Part shown: positions 1 through 8,936 of the stretch, in pieces
Layout of the letters: the number at the start of each line of letters is the position of its first letter
Position numbering within the stretch: position 1 is the stretch's first letter
DNA from: a virus
Taxonomy: Duplodnaviria > Caudoviricetes
Strand: one strand, 5' to 3'
IMG/VR virus record: IMGVR_UViG_3300014204_000011
Span: 21,751 to 85,750 of that record
DNA length: 64,000 nt
The notes under the pieces: generated by a model
Seen by the model: only the letters and a program-made list of their open reading frames with translations
Told to the model about the DNA's origin: nothing
Database searches by the model: none
Translations under genes and position numbers: made by a program

Positions 1-520
1 GAATTATGAAGAACAAAAAGAAATAGGAATTTTAAACGGAACTACTGTAATACCAACAGTTAAATTAACATGGTTTAGAATAAATAGTTTTAGAATAATA
101 GCTGCTGGTGTAAATAAATTACCAACAGGAAATTTAACCATTCGACATATAAACAATACTCCTGTTTATAGTTATATTACGACAAAATTCACTAGAGCGA
201 GAAATGCTATGTATAATACTGTTCCTTTAGGTAAAAATTTATATGTGACAGATGTTTCTGGTGGTTATGCAATAGCAGGAAGCCCAAACAAAGAATATTG
301 TAGAATTACAACAAAAGCAAATATTGATCCTACAACTAAATTTAAAACAGATGGAATATTTTATCCTTTTACCGATTTATTTGCACAAAATATATCTGTT
401 TCAATAATGTTTACTATGCCTACAAAATTACCTCAGAAGACAGATATAAAAATTTCAGCGATAGGCAGTGCGAGTGGATCAGTAATTTCAACATTAAGAG
501 GTTGGTTGGAATCAAATTAA
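1..520 (+). CDS. Hypothetical phage protein, 5' truncated by the window
   Basis: Frame 2 is open from base 2 (NYEEQKEIGILNGTTVIPTVKLTWFRINSF...) into the listed 209..520 ORF, so the true start lies upstream. Confidence 0.7.
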   Translation, partial: NYEEQKEIGILNGTTVIPTVKLTWFRINSFRIIAAGVNKLPTGNLTIRHINNTPVYSYITTKFTRARNAMYNTVPLGKNLYVTDVSGGYAIAGSPNKEYCRITTKANIDPTTKFKTDGIFYPFTDLFAQNISVSIMFTMPTKLPQKTDIKISAIGSASGSVISTLRGWLESN

Positions 521-558: not shown

Positions 559-873
559 ATGCAGCAACAACAATTTCAGATTTCAAATGAAATTTTATTA
601 CAGATTATTGTCTGGCTTGGTTCTGTCAGTATTGGTTTGTTATTTACTATCGGGGGTATTATTTTATATGTATTTAGAAAATCTACCAAAGACAATGACA
701 GTGAACACTGTAGAATTGAAACCGATAATAATTCAGAACATATTAGAATTGAAAAAACGATAACAGATAAATGTAGTGAAATATCTTCTAATCTCTGTAT
801 TTTTAGAAAAGAAATTAGAGATGATATAAAAGGAGTCCACGCTAGAATAGATTCACATTTAGAGGTAGAATAA
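559..873 (+). CDS. Single-TM membrane protein, holin/XhlA-like candidate
   Basis: ATG 559 follows an AAGG RBS. Hydrophobic segment ILLQIIVWLGSVSIGLLFTIGGIILYVF followed by a charged helical tail, in lysis-type context. Confidence 0.5.
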   Translation: MQQQQFQISNEILLQIIVWLGSVSIGLLFTIGGIILYVFRKSTKDNDSEHCRIETDNNSEHIRIEKTITDKCSEISSNLCIFRKEIRDDIKGVHARIDSHLEVE

Positions 874-1431
874 ATGAATAAATCACAAGCAAATATTTTA
901 ATTTCAATAATAGAAACTCATTTTCAGTTTCAAAAACAACATCCAGGAAAAAGATCTATTCTTTTTGATGATATTAAGAAAGTTCTGGAATGCTCTCAAG
1001 ATTATGCTGAAAAATTTGCTAGTACACATTGTAATATGGTTAGTTTTTGGGGACTTAATTATTCTCAGAAATTAACTACTATGCAGTATGATGAATTTTT
1101 TGAAAATATGCTTGAAAATAATTTTTGCAATAAAGAAGGTAAGATCAAAGTTGAAAAAGGTGTTGTCTGTGAACAAATCTTTGGATATGATTTTAAAATT
1201 AAATATTTTGAAGACTATGAAGATGTTTTAAACCCTTTGACAAGATTAAATCCTGAAAAAGGATATCAGCTTAAAATGAAAGGCGATACAAGCGGATTTC
1301 ATTTTATTGCATGTTATATAGATGTTGAAACCGGTTTAATGATGGGTGTAGATTCAAGTTATAGAGGTACACCTTTTATATTATCCGAAAAAGTTAATTC
1401 TAAAAATTTTATATGGTTATTAGAGGTTTAA
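874..1431 (+). CDS. Putative papain-like (C39/DUF261-like) peptidase, candidate endolysin
   Basis: Cys in STHCNMVS, His in SGFHFIAC and Asp in GVDSS follow Cys-His-Asp order. Lies between membrane-protein genes. Confidence 0.4.
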   Translation: MNKSQANILISIIETHFQFQKQHPGKRSILFDDIKKVLECSQDYAEKFASTHCNMVSFWGLNYSQKLTTMQYDEFFENMLENNFCNKEGKIKVEKGVVCEQIFGYDFKIKYFEDYEDVLNPLTRLNPEKGYQLKMKGDTSGFHFIACYIDVETGLMMGVDSSYRGTPFILSEKVNSKNFIWLLEV

Positions 1432-1432
1432 A

Positions 1433-1630
1433 ATGACTAAAAAGCATGAAATAGATAATAAATATGAAGCAGGTACAAGCATTTTCAAAGAAACTTTAAA
1501 AAAATGGTGGGCCGTAGCTTTTTTAATAATAATTTCAGGAGCAATATTTTTTATCTTGCAAATTAAAACATTTCAGTGTGGTAATGTAGTTATTGAGAAA
1601 GATCCAATAAAAACACCATTAAAAAAATAA
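1433..1630 (+). CDS. Small single-TM membrane protein
   Basis: KKWWAVAFLIIISGAIFFILQIK helix; translationally coupled to the upstream gene. Confidence 0.6.
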   Translation: MTKKHEIDNKYEAGTSIFKETLKKWWAVAFLIIISGAIFFILQIKTFQCGNVVIEKDPIKTPLKK

Positions 1631-1640
1631 GGAGAATATA

Positions 1641-2405
1641 ATGATTAGAGATTTTCTTATTGTAATATTTATTTTTTGTTTAACTCTTGCGTCTTATGCT
1701 TCAGAATATGAGTCTCCAATGTCAATTTACAAAGATAATTATATAATTGCCGGAGATAAAGACAATCAGGTAAAAATTCAATTATCAGCAAAATTTAATA
1801 TTTTTTATCCTTCAAATACCGGATTTAATTTGGGTTATACGCAATTAAGCAATTGGTATTGTTATGGCGACAGAGATACTTTTTATACTATGTACTGCCC
1901 TGAAGTTTTTTATAGATTTGAAAGTGGTAATAATCTATTTGATAATGCTGTTATACCTTTTATAGATTTTTTACAAGTATCTCCAATAGAACATAATAGT
2001 ACAGGTGTTGAAGGTGAAAATCATAGAAGTATAAATCAATATTATGCACAGGCTCAATTAAGTTATGGAGAGGTTTATAATGTAGGTGCTGGCGGTAAAT
2101 ATTTTAGATACTATTCTATAAGTGATAAAAATGAAGATATAAATAAATACAGAAAAAATTATGAAGCAGATATATTTTTTAAAATACGATCTAAAACTGT
2201 AAATTATTTAGATAAAGAGGAACTACATTTTAAATTTGGCGGTAATCCTTTAGGTAATGGCTGGTATTGTATAGAGGCTCAATTCAGGCTTATATCAAGT
2301 AAATTTCAGCCAAAATTTATGATCCAATACTATAAAGGATATTCGGAATTCATGGTTCAATATAATCGCAAAGATGAAGCGGTAAGGATAGGGTTAGTAT
2401 TTTGA
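1641..2405 (+). CDS. pldA: Outer membrane phospholipase A (OMPLA)
   Basis: Signal peptide MIRDFLIVIFIFCLTLASYA. Motifs KIQLSAKF, YTQLSNWY, YCPEVFY. Catalytic HNSTG...RSIN (1992-2036) parallels E. coli HDSNG...RSWN. Ends in barrel strand RIGLVF. Confidence 0.88.
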   Translation: MIRDFLIVIFIFCLTLASYASEYESPMSIYKDNYIIAGDKDNQVKIQLSAKFNIFYPSNTGFNLGYTQLSNWYCYGDRDTFYTMYCPEVFYRFESGNNLFDNAVIPFIDFLQVSPIEHNSTGVEGENHRSINQYYAQAQLSYGEVYNVGAGGKYFRYYSISDKNEDINKYRKNYEADIFFKIRSKTVNYLDKEELHFKFGGNPLGNGWYCIEAQFRLISSKFQPKFMIQYYKGYSEFMVQYNRKDEAVRIGLVF

Positions 2406-2569
2406 GTAATATAAAAATACCGGCAGAAATATGGTGTAGAACTTGCGGTTATTTTCGACCTATAGCAAATCAAAATAAAGGTAAAGCTGAAGAATTTAGA
2501 GAAAGAGTTAATTTAAAAGTTCCTTCTCATGAAGTTTTATCTTCTCAAGTTAAAAGGAGTATATCATGA
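2402..2569 (+). CDS. 55-aa NrdD C-terminal (glycyl-radical motif)-like peptide, missing from the ORF track
   Basis: TTG start overlaps the pldA stop and its TGA overlaps the next ATG. Translation MSNIKIPAEIWCRTCGYFRPIANQNKGKAEEFRERVNLKV... resembles the R-x-x-G-Y-x-R-P...N-x-G-K-x-x-E motif. Confidence 0.75.
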   Translation: MSNIKIPAEIWCRTCGYFRPIANQNKGKAEEFRERVNLKVPSHEVLSSQVKRSIS

Positions 2570-2898
2570 ATAAAATAAAAATAATAATTATATGTCTTTT
2601 AATTCTTTCCGGTGCTGCTAATATTTTTTTCTTATCTGGTTGTAAAAGCTTTGATCCTGTAATCGTTCCAGGTCAACCGGATGAATGTAATGATTTTTAT
2701 TCAGTTATGAAATATTATTCAGTTGAGGGCAAAGACAGTGCTTTTGTCGGTACAGTTTATAATGAATGTAAAATAGCAAGAACTAGTGTTCGTTTACAAA
2801 TTAGAGAGAAACACTGTAAAGAACTTATATATGGTCAAGTTGAATTAGATAAAGCTGATTATAAGAGATATTCAGAATATCAGGAATGTTTGAAATAG
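2566..2898 (+). CDS. Cys-rich lipoprotein, possibly o-spanin-like
   Basis: Basic N-terminus, hydrophobic core and lipobox LSGC; several additional Cys. Confidence 0.65.
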   Translation: MNKIKIIIICLLILSGAANIFFLSGCKSFDPVIVPGQPDECNDFYSVMKYYSVEGKDSAFVGTVYNECKIARTSVRLQIREKHCKELIYGQVELDKADYKRYSEYQECLK

Positions 2899-2904
2899 AT
2901 ATTT

Positions 2905-4293
2905 ATGCCTGATGATAAAGACCAACAACATGAAGTCAAAGAAGAAAGATATGTTGAAGATTTAATTCTTTATTATCAGACTTATGTAAATGCGGTTATA
3001 AATGAAATATTTGTAGGTATAGGCATAAGTCTTGGTCAGACAGAAAAACAAGCTTATGCAATGGCTAAGACAGATCCTAAAAAACTTGAAAAAGCATTTT
3101 TTAAAGATGTATTTGAAAAGTTTAAAAATGTATTCAAACATAAAATTCCTAAATTCAGATTAAAACAAAATATATTTAACAAAGGCAAGCCATTAACCGA
3201 AAAGCAATGGGATGTTATAAGTAAAGCAATAGCTGAATACTGGAAACAAAATACTTCCAAAGTCACTGAAGATGTAACTGTAAAAGGTTATGTGCTAGGC
3301 ATAAAATCCTCTAAATATCGTAAAACTAAAATTGATAACACTAAGAAAACCTTACCTGAAATAATCAAACATGAAGAAAAGGAAAGCGGAAAAAAATTTG
3401 CAGATAAGTTTGAAGAAGCTTATAAACGCTATGATTTTAAAAATAGTGAAAAAAATGCTATGAACAGGGCTTTTTCAAATATAGCTATGCACGTTTCTGA
3501 TACTGGTGATGGAGTTAAGCAAGCCATAAGAAAAGTTGTTACTGAAGGTATAAATGAAGGTAAAAGTCCGGTTGAAACTGCTTCAGATCTATATTGGAAT
3601 ATTCAGAAAGAAACCGGTAATGAAACTGCTGAAAGTGTAAGAAAAAATTGGAATAGGATTGCTGCAACAGAAATGAATTCAATATTTGAAGCCGGTATTT
3701 TAGCTCCTTATGAAGCACAGGCTATGGAAAGCTTGAAGACCGGTAAGGGTGTTTATTTTGTCAGAGTAAACGGAACGTGCGATTGGTGTAAACCAAGACA
3801 GGGTACTATAGTTAGATTAGTTCCTACAAGCATAGTAGGTGATGTAAATGATGACAGTTTAAAATCTATGGGTATTGATGATCCCTATACCGATATAGCT
3901 ATATGGGTAGGTAAAAACAATGTAGGTAGGAAAAAACAGGACTGGCTTATATGCTGTCCTGCTCACCCATTTAACAGAGCAAGCTTTTCACTTATTGATT
4001 TAGATACACAAGAATATGAACCTAAATTTGGAAGAGTAGTTAATAAAGTTCCTGAAAGTTTAAAACAATATGGAATTAAAAGAGATACATCTTTTGCAAC
4101 TCCGGAATATAAAGAAAGTAAAAAACCGGTTAAAATAGGTGATAATCTTGTAAGATTTTATGATAGTGTTTATGAAGCTGTAGACAAAGAAAATTATAAT
4201 AAGAAATTAGAATTATGGAAAAAAGATCCATCTCAACCTATACCTGTTAGTCGTAGCAGTACAGATTATAAACATATTTTTGGTGATTTATAA
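2905..4293 (+). CDS. MuF-like head morphogenesis protein
   Basis: WNRIAATEM, CDWC and CPAHPFNR motifs typical of MuF/SPP1 gp7. Contains an LEKA site at 3085-3096. Confidence 0.8.
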   Translation: MPDDKDQQHEVKEERYVEDLILYYQTYVNAVINEIFVGIGISLGQTEKQAYAMAKTDPKKLEKAFFKDVFEKFKNVFKHKIPKFRLKQNIFNKGKPLTEKQWDVISKAIAEYWKQNTSKVTEDVTVKGYVLGIKSSKYRKTKIDNTKKTLPEIIKHEEKESGKKFADKFEEAYKRYDFKNSEKNAMNRAFSNIAMHVSDTGDGVKQAIRKVVTEGINEGKSPVETASDLYWNIQKETGNETAESVRKNWNRIAATEMNSIFEAGILAPYEAQAMESLKTGKGVYFVRVNGTCDWCKPRQGTIVRLVPTSIVGDVNDDSLKSMGIDDPYTDIAIWVGKNNVGRKKQDWLICCPAHPFNRASFSLIDLDTQEYEPKFGRVVNKVPESLKQYGIKRDTSFATPEYKESKKPVKIGDNLVRFYDSVYEAVDKENYNKKLELWKKDPSQPIPVSRSSTDYKHIFGDL

Positions 4294-5066
4294 TGATCTT
4301 TGATATTAATCAAGATATTATCATGGACACCATAATGTCAAATATTGAAAATGCAAAAGAAGAATATATTCAAGAAATAATTGAACGTATAGATGATTCA
4401 ATTCCTGGAGTTTTAGAATTACTTTTAAATGATTCCACTGAATATTGGAAAGAAACCGCAATAGGCAAAGGTGGTGGATGGGGAGAAATATATGCCAGTG
4501 CCATTAAAAATAAAGGTACAAGTGATGGTGGCGAAGTTTATATTGATGAAAGTGTAAAAGGTAAAAATAATAAACCTGCAAAAATGTTTTCAGAAATGGT
4601 AGAAAAAGGTGTTAAAAGTTGGTCAATACAAGATGCACTCTTAGCAAGTTCAAAGGCTAAAACAAGTAAAGATGGGATAAAATATATTGTAGTACCTTTT
4701 CCTGTTCGTACACCTTCTAAAAAAGGACAGGGTAAAGTAGGTTCAAGGTTTGGCGGTAGAGAGATGTCCTCTGATGTGTATAAAATTGTAAAAAGTGGTG
4801 GTAAAATATCTAAAGGAACAATGCTTACAACTGCATCAGGAAAAGAAATAGATATTGGAGGTCTTACAAGATTTCAAACACAAAAATTTCATAGTGGTTA
4901 TGGTATATTTAGATGTGTAAGTAAAAATTCTAATGGATGGCAATATCCTGATAAATCTCCAAGACCGGTATTTCCAAGTGTTGTAGATTATGTAAATAAA
5001 AGAGTGGCAGAAATAATTGAAGAACTCTGCCAAGCTATTGTTAAAGAATTTGATATGAGAGATTAA
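4293..5066 (+). CDS. Virion morphogenesis / neck-like protein
   Basis: KYIVVPF and FRCVSKNSNGWQYP motifs resemble Twort-like neck proteins; coupled to MuF. Confidence 0.5.
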   Translation: MIFDINQDIIMDTIMSNIENAKEEYIQEIIERIDDSIPGVLELLLNDSTEYWKETAIGKGGGWGEIYASAIKNKGTSDGGEVYIDESVKGKNNKPAKMFSEMVEKGVKSWSIQDALLASSKAKTSKDGIKYIVVPFPVRTPSKKGQGKVGSRFGGREMSSDVYKIVKSGGKISKGTMLTTASGKEIDIGGLTRFQTQKFHSGYGIFRCVSKNSNGWQYPDKSPRPVFPSVVDYVNKRVAEIIEELCQAIVKEFDMRD

Positions 5067-5854
5067 TCAAAAACCTTAATCTTTATATTCTCACCAATTC
5101 TTGACGGATCTCCTCCATAAATATTAAGTTTATTTTTTATATCATCCTGAAGAGTATAATGAGTATTACCGTTCTTACATACTTTTAATTTAAAATACTC
5201 GTTTTCTGATTCAGGTTTTTTATTAGTTCTTAATTGATCTATAATTGTATGATCTGGTAATTTTTTTCCGTCCAGGATATAACAAAGTTTCTCAAGATCA
5301 TCTGTAATAGTTGGCTTATCTCTATAATAACCAAAAACACGAGAATAATCATATGTGGTTATAATAAAGGTTGTATCTATGCCGTTATTGTTACGTTTCT
5401 TTTTAGTGCTGGAATTGTAATTACTACCTCCAGTATAATAATAACTGTCTGTAATTCGTTCATAAACTGATTTCATCATGGTTTTGATATTATCATAAAT
5501 AATATCTTTTAAACTGGCTATATATCCTTCGGCGTTTTCAATAGTAAATACGGGAAAATCAAATTGATCAATTTGTTTCTGCATTTTTTCATAATCAGTA
5601 CAGAGCATATATTTTTCAAGTTCAAATAATCTGATAAGATATTGCCAGCATGTTCTATCAATGTATTTTTCAGCTCTGTTATCACTATAATTATCAAATC
5701 TATATTCAATTCGATAAGGTCGATAACCTTTAATTTCAGAAAGATCTTTTTCTATTTCATTATCAAGCTTTTCAAGCATTGATAATTGAGTTAAAAGTAT
5801 TTGTTTAAGATTAAATATTTCAGTTATTGATTTGCGCTTTACTGGTAAATTCAT
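5063..5854 (-). CDS. DUF4942-like protein
   Basis: IDRTCWQYLIRL, ITDDLEKLCYILDGK and ENEYFKLKVCKNGNTHYTL match my recollection of the family. Confidence 0.7.
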   Translation of the reverse strand: MNLPVKRKSITEIFNLKQILLTQLSMLEKLDNEIEKDLSEIKGYRPYRIEYRFDNYSDNRAEKYIDRTCWQYLIRLFELEKYMLCTDYEKMQKQIDQFDFPVFTIENAEGYIASLKDIIYDNIKTMMKSVYERITDSYYYTGGSNYNSSTKKKRNNNGIDTTFIITTYDYSRVFGYYRDKPTITDDLEKLCYILDGKKLPDHTIIDQLRTNKKPESENEYFKLKVCKNGNTHYTLQDDIKNKLNIYGGDPSRIGENIKIKVFD

Positions 5855-6923: not shown

Positions 6924-8936
6924 ATGAATAGAGATCAAATAATTGATTTAATAGATAGACAAATAGACTTTACTGATATGAAAAAAGCTGGTCTTGCACT
7001 GCAAAAACATTATGAAATTAATTCAAGACGCATGGAAGCAATAGATGTTAAAAACTGTCTTGCTAATGGTCATCCAATTGCCATACAGGGAAAATTGATT
7101 ATTGGTTATGATATGCAAAAAGCTTTTGAAAGTAGTGATAGCGAATTTTTTGATATAGAAAGACCGGTTGAAGCTATTGAAATTGTTGAAACTCTTCCAG
7201 AGCGAGAATATTTCGCTATTGTAGGTCGTAACGAATGGGGAGATATTTCAGAATTTAATAATATCATAGGTGATTTAAGACTTGGTGAAATATATCTGCC
7301 TAAACATTCTGCAATATTCAACTTCTTAAATCCTACGGAAAAGACTAAAAAAGAAAAAATTCAAAGTGTTCTTAACGGAGTTCAAGTAATTGTTTATGAA
7401 AGAGAAAACTATGTAGATAACTGCTTCCATGAGATCGGACACCTGTTCTGGAGAACTTGTACAAGATTTGAAGAAAAGATGCAATTTAAAGAATTATTTA
7501 AACATTTACGAACATCTTGTATTTATGAATACGAATGGGAGCGAAGTACGGAAGAAGAGGTTTTTTGTACAATTTATAAATGGTATATGAAGTCTGTGCT
7601 TATAAACAAGAGTTTTTACAACATACTTGAATACGAAGAAAGCTATGGACTTAAATTATTACAAAGTGTTTTTGACCGTATCGCTAAAGAACGGATCATT
7701 GACGATATATGGGAAATGAGCAAAGAAGATGTTATTGAATATTTAAACCCTCCCCTGGATAAAACGACCGGAAAATATATTCGTAAATCAGGTATGTTTG
7801 ATAAGATTAAAGATATAGAACTGCCTGAAAGCATATTGAACCGGATTGAAAGCGTACAGAATGGACAGGCTTTTGTTGGGCTTGGTAAAGCCGTAGTGCC
7901 GGTTAATAATAATCTGATTGATTTTGATAGAATTAAAATGATACCTTTGGAGAAAGCTAATGGTAAACCAACAATATATCTCGATCAAGATGGAATTGTT
8001 ACAAATTTTGCAGAAGCCTACAAGATAGCCTTTAATCGTGATGTATTTAAAGATGACAGTTTTACAGTGACAGAAATGTGTAAAACTGAGCCAAGATTTT
8101 TCTTAACTATACCAGTATTACAGCGTGGTAAAGAATTATATAATCGCTTGGTTAAAAAGTATAATATAATATTTCTCACAACCGCTATGGATGAACTTGA
8201 ATATTGTAGATCTGATAAAGTGACTTGGCTTAAACAGAATATATGTTCAGAGCCTACAATAATATTTTCTGATAATAAAGCTGATTATGCACATTCTGAA
8301 AAAGATATACTCGTGGATGATATGGCTCATAATTTAACCGCATTTTATGAAGCTGGAGGGACTGCAATCAATTTTAATTCTATGTCGAATGATGAGATAA
8401 TGCAAAAGATTGCAGAGACATTAAATCCACAGGAAGAAATAAGACAGATAAAGCAACAAATTAAAGAAATGAAAGTTAATGTAGAGCCGAGTGAAAAACA
8501 AAAAGAGAATGGAAATTACGCTAAAGGAAAAATAATATTTAAACAGATACCAATAACTATAGAAAATCCAAAGGGAAGTATAAGATCAGGCATAGGCGCA
8601 AACGGTGTGAAATGGTTGTCTAAAATGAGTTCACACTACGGATATATTAAAGGTACTGAAGGCAATGATGGAGATGAAATTGATTGCTTTATTGGAGATG
8701 ATTTCAGCACAAACAAAGCCTTTGTTGTAAACCAGGGTTTTAATAATTTATTCGATGAGCATAAAATTCTCCTCGGTTTTAATACAATAGAGGATGCCAG
8801 AACCGCTTTTCTGAAATGTTATTCTAAAGGTTGGGAAAAGAATATCATGAACATAGTACCGACCAATACAAAAGTGTTGAGACAGTGGCTAAAGACCGGC
8901 AATTATAAAGAGCCGTTTAGTGGTGAGTTTAAATAA
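6924..8936 (+). CDS. Polyvalent protein: zincin metallopeptidase + HAD 5'(3')-deoxyribonucleotidase-like + inorganic pyrophosphatase-like domain
   Basis: HEIGH at 7428-7442. TIYLDQDG...LVDDMAHN HAD motifs. ITIENPKGSIRSG...HYGYIKGTEGNDGDEIDCFIG...DEHKILLGF InPase motifs. Confidence 0.85.
   Translation: MNRDQIIDLIDRQIDFTDMKKAGLALQKHYEINSRRMEAIDVKNCLANGHPIAIQGKLIIGYDMQKAFESSDSEFFDIERPVEAIEIVETLPEREYFAIVGRNEWGDISEFNNIIGDLRLGEIYLPKHSAIFNFLNPTEKTKKEKIQSVLNGVQVIVYERENYVDNCFHEIGHLFWRTCTRFEEKMQFKELFKHLRTSCIYEYEWERSTEEEVFCTIYKWYMKSVLINKSFYNILEYEESYGLKLLQSVFDRIAKERIIDDIWEMSKEDVIEYLNPPLDKTTGKYIRKSGMFDKIKDIELPESILNRIESVQNGQAFVGLGKAVVPVNNNLIDFDRIKMIPLEKANGKPTIYLDQDGIVTNFAEAYKIAFNRDVFKDDSFTVTEMCKTEPRFFLTIPVLQRGKELYNRLVKKYNIIFLTTAMDELEYCRSDKVTWLKQNICSEPTIIFSDNKADYAHSEKDILVDDMAHNLTAFYEAGGTAINFNSMSNDEIMQKIAETLNPQEEIRQIKQQIKEMKVNVEPSEKQKENGNYAKGKIIFKQIPITIENPKGSIRSGIGANGVKWLSKMSSHYGYIKGTEGNDGDEIDCFIGDDFSTNKAFVVNQGFNNLFDEHKILLGFNTIEDARTAFLKCYSKGWEKNIMNIVPTNTKVLRQWLKTGNYKEPFSGEFK

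Follow-up and report, generated by a model that had tools for sequence, protein, structure and literature searches.

We describe a gene for an outer-membrane phospholipase A (OMPLA, or PldA) carried by an uncultured phage of the Caudoviricetes, in what is very probably the lysis cassette of that phage. The DNA analysed, hereafter called the window, is a stretch of 64,000 nucleotides (nt) covering bases 21751-85750 of the IMG/VR virus record IMGVR_UViG_3300014204_000011. Six co-directional open reading frames (ORFs) near its start, correctly located in a preliminary description made from the sequence alone, code in order for the proteins that we call TM104, p185, TM65, PldA, NrdDc55 and Lipo110 (Table 1). 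Our preferred reading, to which we give a probability of about 0.5, is that PldA would act as an accessory lysis enzyme disrupting the outer membrane, and that its gene would be a mobile insert in the cassette.

The description of this protein as PldA-type, with a signal peptide, a catalytic triad and a terminal Phe, was borne out by profile searches, alignment to known structures and conservation within the family, which all agree. PldA matched the Pfam family PLA1 (PF02253) at 75.8 bits, for a cut-off of 27, its residues 22-253 aligning to positions 35-256 of the 257-position model, and a six-frame search recovered the PF02253 match at 74.9 bits. Alignment with phmmer to the structures 1qd6 and 1fw2 of Escherichia coli OMPLA (E 2.5e-4) placed HNSTG...RSIN on HDSNG...RSWN, with H118, S120 and N132 opposite H142, S144 and N156. 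The catalytic triad of the E. coli enzyme is His142-Ser144-Asn156, and the enzyme is regulated by dimerisation and calcium (PMC5043575). Aligning 44 members of the family showed His118 and Ser120 in every one, and Asn132 and the Phe of the last column in 41 each. The N-terminus of PldA, read from the sequence, is hydrophobic and ends in S-Y-A before S-E-Y, and the N-termini of the 12 family members inspected were all signal-peptide-like. By sequence, PldA is a true member of the OMPLA/PldA family with intact catalytic residues, and the full-length profile match predicts a beta-barrel. It scored 35 bits with NF008031, the NCBIfam equivalog model of enterobacterial PldA, whose cut-off is 369, and we class it as a distant member of the family and not as an ortholog of E. 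coli PldA. The base composition of its gene (GC 28%, and 16% at third codon positions) matches that of the phage. As a separate observation, the PldA of a more distant phage of the same lineage (L041:4872-5705) has an Asp (R-S-T-D) at the triad position held by Asn in E. coli and in the window, and carries a long N-terminal extension ahead of its hydrophobic segment.

The setting of the gene was examined by comparison with related loci (L numbers). L014 and L016-L018, the last three being copies of one contig, have portal proteins 79-89% identical to that of the window phage and retain the block in the same slot. The genes of the block diverge much faster than the flanks: in L014 and L016, identity is 34-64% for PldA and 40-52% for p185, against 72-77% for the MuF-like protein encoded next to the block. 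PldA is retained in L016, where a 151-residue transmembrane (TM) protein replaces Lipo110. L041 belongs to the same lineage but is more distant, with 63% identity in the large terminase subunit (TerL), 63% in the portal and 53% in p364, the 364-residue protein encoded after the portal. Directly after p364 it encodes a 79-residue TM protein, a 141-residue M15 peptidase, a 60-residue ORF, a PldA from another sub-clade (38% identical to that of the window) and a Lipo110 homolog. The peptidase shows the M15 pattern H..D...H and a sub-threshold match to Peptidase_M15_3. Proteins in 171 cultured-phage records share 26-39% identity with it, in most cases over 80% or more of its length; among the 40 records listed, about 10 carry the annotation endolysin, and three more that of an M15 or D-Ala-D-Ala carboxypeptidase-type peptidase.

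A similar gene order was found at what appear to be the ends of two Spirochaetota prophages. In L039, located on a 396-kb contig, large tail-like ORFs are followed by an 81-residue protein with an N-terminal TM segment, a 197-residue Peptidase_C39_2 protein, a TM65 homolog, a VanZ-like protein with two TM segments and a Lipo110 homolog, after which the genes lie on the opposite strand. L038 resembles it, with tail-like ORFs, an N-terminal-TM protein, a C39_2 peptidase, a TM protein, a Lipo110 homolog and then opposite-strand genes. The peptidases of L039 and L038 scored 36.4 and 26.1 bits with Peptidase_C39_2 (cut-off 24), and that of L039 is 32% identical to a feature of Synechococcus phage S-B68 annotated as endolysin. 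Beyond the cassette, neither locus has anything in common with the window phage, and the arrangement appears to be a lysis cassette type of Spirochaetota phages that has not been described. On yet another, unrelated backbone, L010 and L011 encode a TM protein, a p185 homolog, PldA, a small TM protein and a Lipo110 homolog; the 126-residue TM protein of L010 weakly matches PHROG 739, 'Rz-like spanin', at 20.6 bits, the one spanin family signal obtained. Since L038 and L039 lack PldA but keep the gene order of the window, PldA and the NrdD-tail ORF NrdDc55 appear to be an insert between TM65 and Lipo110. The proposal of a lysis cassette has thus become very probable through the slot in L041 and the matching prophage ends, whereas the muralytic and holin roles within it are candidate assignments.

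Table 1. Features of the window, and prophage-end cassettes used for comparison
Feature	Coordinates	Strand	Basis or remark
C-terminus of putative virion protein of 446 amino acids (aa)	2..520	+	upstream border of cassette
TM104, bitopic protein of 104 aa, N-terminal TM segment, charged C-terminal domain of 65 aa	559..873	+	hydropathy, flank charges
p185, soluble papain/C39-like cysteine peptidase of 185 aa, no signal peptide	874..1431	+	fold and conserved residues
TM65, bitopic protein of 65 aa: basic N-terminus of 24 aa, one TM segment, tail of 21 aa	1433..1630	+	sequence features, homologs
PldA, outer-membrane phospholipase A homolog of 254 aa	1641..2405	+	Pfam PLA1, triad, signal peptide, C-terminal Phe
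NrdDc55, stand-alone NrdD C-terminal glycyl-radical motif region of 55 aa	2402..2569	+	Pfam NRDD
Lipo110, lipoprotein of 110 aa, lipobox LSGC, Cys26, Lys at +2	2566..2898	+	last cassette gene
MuF/SPP1 gp7-like head-morphogenesis gene	2905..4293	+	PHROG 2468 and 3517 'head morphogenesis'; downstream border
Prophage-end cassette, L039	L039:7207-9121 (genome G330)		Spirochaetota
Prophage-end cassette, L038	L038:7273-8893 (genome G065)		Spirochaetota

The six genes are tightly packed. The TAA of the first is followed directly by the ATG of the second, and the next junctions are a gap of 1 nt, a gap of 10 nt containing GGAG, two overlaps of 4 nt and a gap of 6 nt before the MuF-like gene. A scan of the block for sigma-70 promoters and terminators gave no signal above shuffled controls. 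Co-transcription, as initially claimed, is therefore consistent with the packed junctions and with the lack of an internal terminator signal, an argument from geometry.

The view of p185 as papain-like holds at the level of the predicted fold. Its AlphaFold2 (AF2) model, with a predicted local distance difference test score (pLDDT) of 96 and a predicted template modelling score (pTM) of 0.92, gave VIA Z scores of 9.3 with the C39 domain of PCAT1 (root mean square deviation 3.0, 132 residues aligned), 9.1 with staphopain C, 8.9 with ComA and 8.8 with the pseudomurein endoisopeptidase PeiR, and all good structural matches were clan-CA cysteine peptidases. C53, H143 and D160 are invariant among 19 sequences, distant ones included, and Q18 is nearly so. 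p185 matched no Pfam (including PF03412 and PF13529), PHROG or NCBIfam family, hhalign found nothing between it and the C39_2 protein of L039, and tblastn gave no match in 50,697 cultured-phage records. Among 1.84 billion proteins, its family forms 104 clusters at the 50% identity level. We propose p185 as a candidate cytoplasmic endolysin of a new clan-CA family. It would occupy the endolysin slot because an M15-type endolysin in L041 and C39_2 peptidases in L038 and L039 hold the same slot. No other endolysin was recognised in the complete genome, either by comparison of about 60 ORFs with the PHROGs or by six-frame searches for Phage_lysozyme, Amidase_2, SLT and Peptidase_M15_4. Some 10 longer proteins carry the p185 domain at the C-terminus, behind N-terminal regions in which no informative Pfam domain was detected.

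TM104 and TM65 are candidate lysis membrane proteins, the former holin- or releasin-like and the latter a second such protein, to judge from sequence features and position. The flanks of the TM segment of TM104 carry no Lys or Arg before it and four after it, which predicts an N-out/C-in topology. Homologs occur at the same position in L014 and L016. TM104 matched no Pfam, PHROG or NCBIfam family, nor DUF2730 at E values up to 0.1, and the 81-residue protein in its position in L039 gave a full-length, sub-threshold DUF2730 match (17.8 bits). The releasin of phage Mu, gp25, is a DUF2730 protein with N-out/C-in topology, adjoins the endolysin, and members of this type are found with cytoplasmic endolysins too (PMC9239132). 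TM104 also has, at about residues 47-68, 22 inserted residues that its counterparts in L014 and L016 lack and that duplicate an acidic S-E-H-x-R-I-E motif. The tail of TM65 has a conserved Q-C-G-N just past the TM segment. TM65 homologs were detected in L014, L016 and the prophage L039 (38% identity; profile 32.6 bits), where the gene likewise lies between those of the peptidase and the lipoprotein, and no Pfam, PHROG or NCBIfam family matched. BLAST, iterated hidden Markov model (HMM) searches and hhalign detected no homology linking the TM proteins of one cassette lineage to those of the other, and their correspondence is positional only.

Lipo110 belongs to the core of the cassette. Its homologs close the cassettes of L014, L010/L011, L041, L038 and L039, and in a 34-sequence alignment four further Cys are invariant besides that of the lipobox. 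A three-helix bundle was predicted by AF2 (pLDDT 85.5; above 90 for the greater part of the mature domain but lower at residues 51-60). A fold search returned only generic helical matches (best Z 5.6), an atlas search only scores of 0.80, and no Pfam, PHROG or NCBIfam family matched. Homologs occur without PldA in five phage or prophage settings (L023-L025, L038 and L039), and in L023-L025 they usually lie near an NrdD-tail ORF. Conversely, nine of the 13 PldA-bearing loci compared with the window lack any lipobox ORF within 2.5 kb, and lipobox ORFs were found within that distance of PldA only where Lipo110 homologs occur. The idea that the lipoprotein is a dedicated activator of PldA thus finds no support, because Lipo110 is core to the cassette and occurs without PldA.

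NrdDc55 matched the last part of the Pfam NRDD model (22.2 bits, positions 533-560 of 562), and NCBIfam NrdD models also match it at their C-termini. It has the motif R-T-C-G-Y-F-R-P...N-K-G-K and overlaps both neighbouring genes by 4 nt, indicating translational coupling. Neither nrdD nor nrdG was found in the window phage genome. NrdDc55 is 79% identical in L016, above its neighbours there, and NrdD-tail ORFs recur beside Lipo110 or p185 homologs in L014, L015, L023-L025 and L032. It is probably co-inserted cargo and not a lysis gene, and could be a GrcA-like spare part for the class III reductase of the host.

The relatives of PldA form at least 47 clusters of 42-91% identity, all from metagenomes, and some of them lie on contigs of 70-150 kb. 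No match was obtained by tblastn of PldA against the cultured-phage records, no PHROG family matched any of the six cassette proteins, and a pattern scan of genome contigs with the PldA alignment returned nothing; Joint Genome Institute (JGI) pipelines have given these phage PldA genes automatic labels. The clade was found in about 15 phage settings, among them loci in which PldA adjoins genes for coiled-coil TM proteins (L006, L008 and L012). In a tree rooted on cellular PldAs of Spirochaetota, the phage PldAs form one clade with mixed contexts. The allele of the window groups with that of L004, which has an unrelated backbone, and that of L014, from the same lineage as the window, is basal and 34% identical. 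PldA is therefore, as judged from this phage-only clade with its mixed contexts and from its phage-like composition, an old, phage-adapted and often exchanged gene whose alleles have been swapped between phage backbones.

In the preferred reading, TM104 would be holin- or releasin-like, p185 a cytoplasmic C39/papain-like endolysin, TM65 a second membrane protein and Lipo110 the terminal outer-membrane lipoprotein of the cassette core, within which PldA and the NrdD-tail ORF would be a mobile insert. PldA would be produced alongside the late gene products, leave the cytoplasm by the Sec route and insert into the outer membrane as a latent barrel. Once the inner membrane had been permeabilised and the wall cut, the enzyme would be switched on and would hydrolyse outer-membrane phospholipids, weakening the last barrier, so that release would be sped up or completed. 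For PldA, we infer activity, timing, latency, activation and effect on lysis alike. Host OMPLA is activated by perturbation of the envelope and is needed for colicin release via lysis lipoproteins, and Cronan and Wulff are said to have found in 1969 that it is activated late in T4 infection.

A number of observations weigh against this reading. The same type of cassette lacks PldA in L038, L039 and L023-L025, and no neighbour of PldA falls in a holin, endolysin or spanin family known to Pfam, PHROG or NCBIfam. Several homologs lie outside lysis contexts: PldA adjoins DnaE-like genes in L004 and L009, closely follows NrdG-NrdD in the P0044 contig and in L005, where a p185 homolog is also present, and comes after genes for giant tail-fibre-like proteins in L019 and L040. 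PldA thus lies in probable lysis cassettes in the window, L014 and L016, in L041 and in L010/L011, but not at the loci with replication or nucleotide-metabolism genes. Little weight can be given to the lack of a canonical endolysin as a pointer to a lysis cassette, because G405, a complete 155-kb PldA phage, lacks p185 as well as all six endolysin families tested. Finally, the regulation of PldA may differ from that of E. coli OMPLA, because the positions aligned to D149 and S152, which in the E. coli enzyme are calcium-site side chains, are Gly (41 of 44 members) and His or Ser (33 and 10 of 44), respectively.

PldA could instead be an envelope 'moron' that lodged in the cassette only because the region tolerates insertions, and whose benefit to the infected cell or lysogen would be repair of outer-membrane lipid asymmetry, a surface change, superinfection exclusion or altered vesicle formation. 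It stands alone in many unrelated contexts, its alleles have been swapped between backbones according to the tree, and it travels with unrelated cargo, the NrdD tail. The phage moreover has an integrase and an anti-repressor, and the stretch between portal and MuF holds variable cargo in L022, a distant relative. There is, however, no space for a promoter of its own, because PldA is preceded by a 10-nt gap containing the ribosome-binding site and followed by a 4-nt overlap. Insertions at two points of lysis cassettes in two or three backbones (window/L014/L016, L041 and L010/L011) amount to more than one accident, and the composition of PldA is fully ameliorated to that of the phage. The phage PldAs also form a clade apart from the sampled cellular PldAs of Spirochaetota, which argues for a long residence in phages. 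We regard this explanation, the main rival of the preferred reading, as rather unlikely, though it deserves serious consideration.

That PldA would be the sole outer-membrane disruptor, in place of spanins, with Lipo110 activating it as colicin lysis lipoproteins activate host OMPLA, appears improbable to us, although several features fit. PHROG scans of the genome gave no spanin family match; the predicted N-out/C-in topology of TM104 is wrong for an i-spanin, the outer tail of TM65 has just 21 residues, and the predicted structured three-helix form of Lipo110 is unlike typical o-spanins. PldA adjoins Lipo110 in four backbones, and about 15% of phages lack spanins, disruptin being another device, according to a preprint (bioRxiv 10.1101/515445). 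Nevertheless, Lipo110 homologs close cassettes devoid of PldA and also occur elsewhere without it, most PldA loci have no lipoprotein gene nearby, and in L016 PldA is accompanied by the 151-residue TM protein and not by Lipo110. Because cassettes without PldA must open the outer membrane by other means, the disruptor may be Lipo110, perhaps together with TM65. A further explanation would take p185 and the NrdD tail for a nucleotide-metabolism module, involved for instance in trimming or repair of an oxygen-damaged class III ribonucleotide reductase, and the block for mixed cargo. An NrdD-tail ORF lies directly upstream of the p185 homolog in L032, p185 and PldA homologs follow NrdG-NrdD in L005, and the p185 homolog of L024 is found among tail-fibre-like genes without adjacent TM proteins. 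Yet in L041, L038 and L039 recognised endolysin-type enzymes occupy the slot of p185, next to members of the same families of TM proteins and lipoproteins, and the window genome has no nrdD or nrdG; we give this explanation very little credence.

The phage itself is complete and uncultured. Its 85,750-bp record (85.7 kb) has direct terminal repeats and a CheckV completeness of 100%, and the GC content is 31%. The 5' side of the block holds integrase and anti-repressor genes, which make the phage probably temperate, as well as those of the small and large terminase subunits and of the portal. The portal is followed by proteins of 364, 202 and 446 residues, two of which weakly match virion-structural PHROGs. 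The 446-residue protein matches PHROG 8198 (unknown function) over residues 258-435 and, upstream of the window, PHROG 5838 'virion structural protein' over residues 11-94. On the 3' side, the MuF-like gene is followed by genes for large multidomain virion proteins and the major capsid protein. The latter has at most 28% identity to any cultured phage, the top matches being Bacteroides DAC phages, and is 26% identical to that of Leptospira phage LE1.

The host searches covered a single phylum, Spirochaetota. A 157-kb contig of a metagenome-assembled genome (MAG) from that phylum encodes a pair of portal (40%) and MuF (32%) homologs. Cellular PldAs of 33-39% identity were found in 22 of the 401 Spirochaetota genomes, and homologs of p185 and of Lipo110 in two genomes each. 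The host is probably a member of the Spirochaetota, which on such sequence resemblance we offer as a lead and not as a finding.

Other observations concern neighbouring genes and relatives. Between the head-morphogenesis genes and a 670-residue virion protein lie a DUF4942 gene (67 bits; window 5063-5854, minus strand) and several small antisense ORFs. In the 670-residue protein (window 6924-8936, plus strand), a region resembling 5'-3' deoxyribonucleotidases is joined to a C-terminal domain common to giant virion or 'DarB-like' proteins, and the homolog of this protein in L016 matches Pfam ART-PolyVal and InPase. The 9.6-kb contig L021 (CAZVMT010000115.1), which was assigned to a Bathyarchaeia MAG, has a GC content of 31% and encodes portal and p364 proteins 62-64% and 48% identical to those of the window phage, respectively; it is most likely a mis-binned phage contig.

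Our literature search found no paper on a phage OMPLA, and the protein is in no cultured-phage record, PHROG family or publication searched. The known ways to breach the outer membrane are spanins and one peptide, disruptin, neither being recognised in about 15% of phages by the same preprint (bioRxiv 10.1101/515445). Phage OMPLA might be a third, enzymatic device of this kind, a self-contained gene moving between unrelated phages that share a host group, probably Spirochaetota. It would sit within an unrecognised type of cassette, in which a releasin- or holin-like TM protein and a C39-like cysteine-peptidase endolysin are accompanied by a small TM protein and a lipoprotein with four Cys, but we advance this whole picture only tentatively and consider it doubtful. 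If it were true, an integral outer-membrane lipase in lysis cassettes would add an enzymatic route, and phage lysis would be tied to the activation of host OMPLA in colicin release and late in phage infection. The unannotated cassette type and the candidate endolysin family of p185 would also aid the annotation of many metagenomic phages.

Compared with known systems, p185 resembles the C39 and C39_2 families of clan CA (PCAT1, ComA, staphopain, PeiR) in its predicted papain-like fold (131-141 residues) and in the order Gln...Cys...His...Asp, and differs from them in having no sequence-family match. Like Mu gp25, TM104 and its positional equivalents are small, with a predicted N-out/C-in topology, an N-terminal TM segment and a charged cytoplasmic domain, and lie beside the endolysin slot (PMC9239132). 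Unlike gp25, TM104 has no DUF2730 match, and p185 has no signal-anchor-release (SAR) or signal sequence, so a role as holin is at least as likely. The build of TM104 suits a holin, a small membrane protein whose charged C-terminal tail adjoins the endolysin in gene order, but it matched no holin family. Two-component spanins pair an outer-membrane lipoprotein with an inner-membrane partner that is N-in/C-out and has a long periplasmic coiled coil. With regard to them, Lipo110 has a lipobox and Lys at +2 but a predicted three-helix, four-Cys form, the C-terminus of TM104 would face inwards and TM65 has 21 residues past its TM segment. The pairing of a small lipoprotein with an outer-membrane phospholipase A recalls the release of colicins and other bacteriocins by lipoproteins acting via host OMPLA, although here one block encodes both. 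A colicin lysis protein is a lipopeptide of some 30 residues, whereas mature Lipo110 would be an 85-residue three-helix protein with four Cys, and Lipo110 and PldA each occur alone. PldA shares with E. coli OMPLA (PF02253; 1qd5, 1qd6 and 1fw2) the family, the triad arrangement His-x-Ser-x-Gly...Arg-Ser-x-Asn, a signal peptide for Sec and a final aromatic residue of the kind usual in outer-membrane barrels; it is about 35 residues shorter at the N-terminus, phage-encoded and separate from the sampled cellular PldAs of Spirochaetota. The nearest known phage analogue is the LysB esterase of mycobacteriophages, a soluble enzyme whose target is the mycolate layer. With the spanins (lambda Rz/Rz1) and disruptin (phiKT gp28), PldA has in common the lysis-cassette setting and a proposed step at the outer membrane that follows cutting of the wall. 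Spanins act by membrane fusion, disruptin being a cationic peptide, whereas an integral outer-membrane lipase would act enzymatically.

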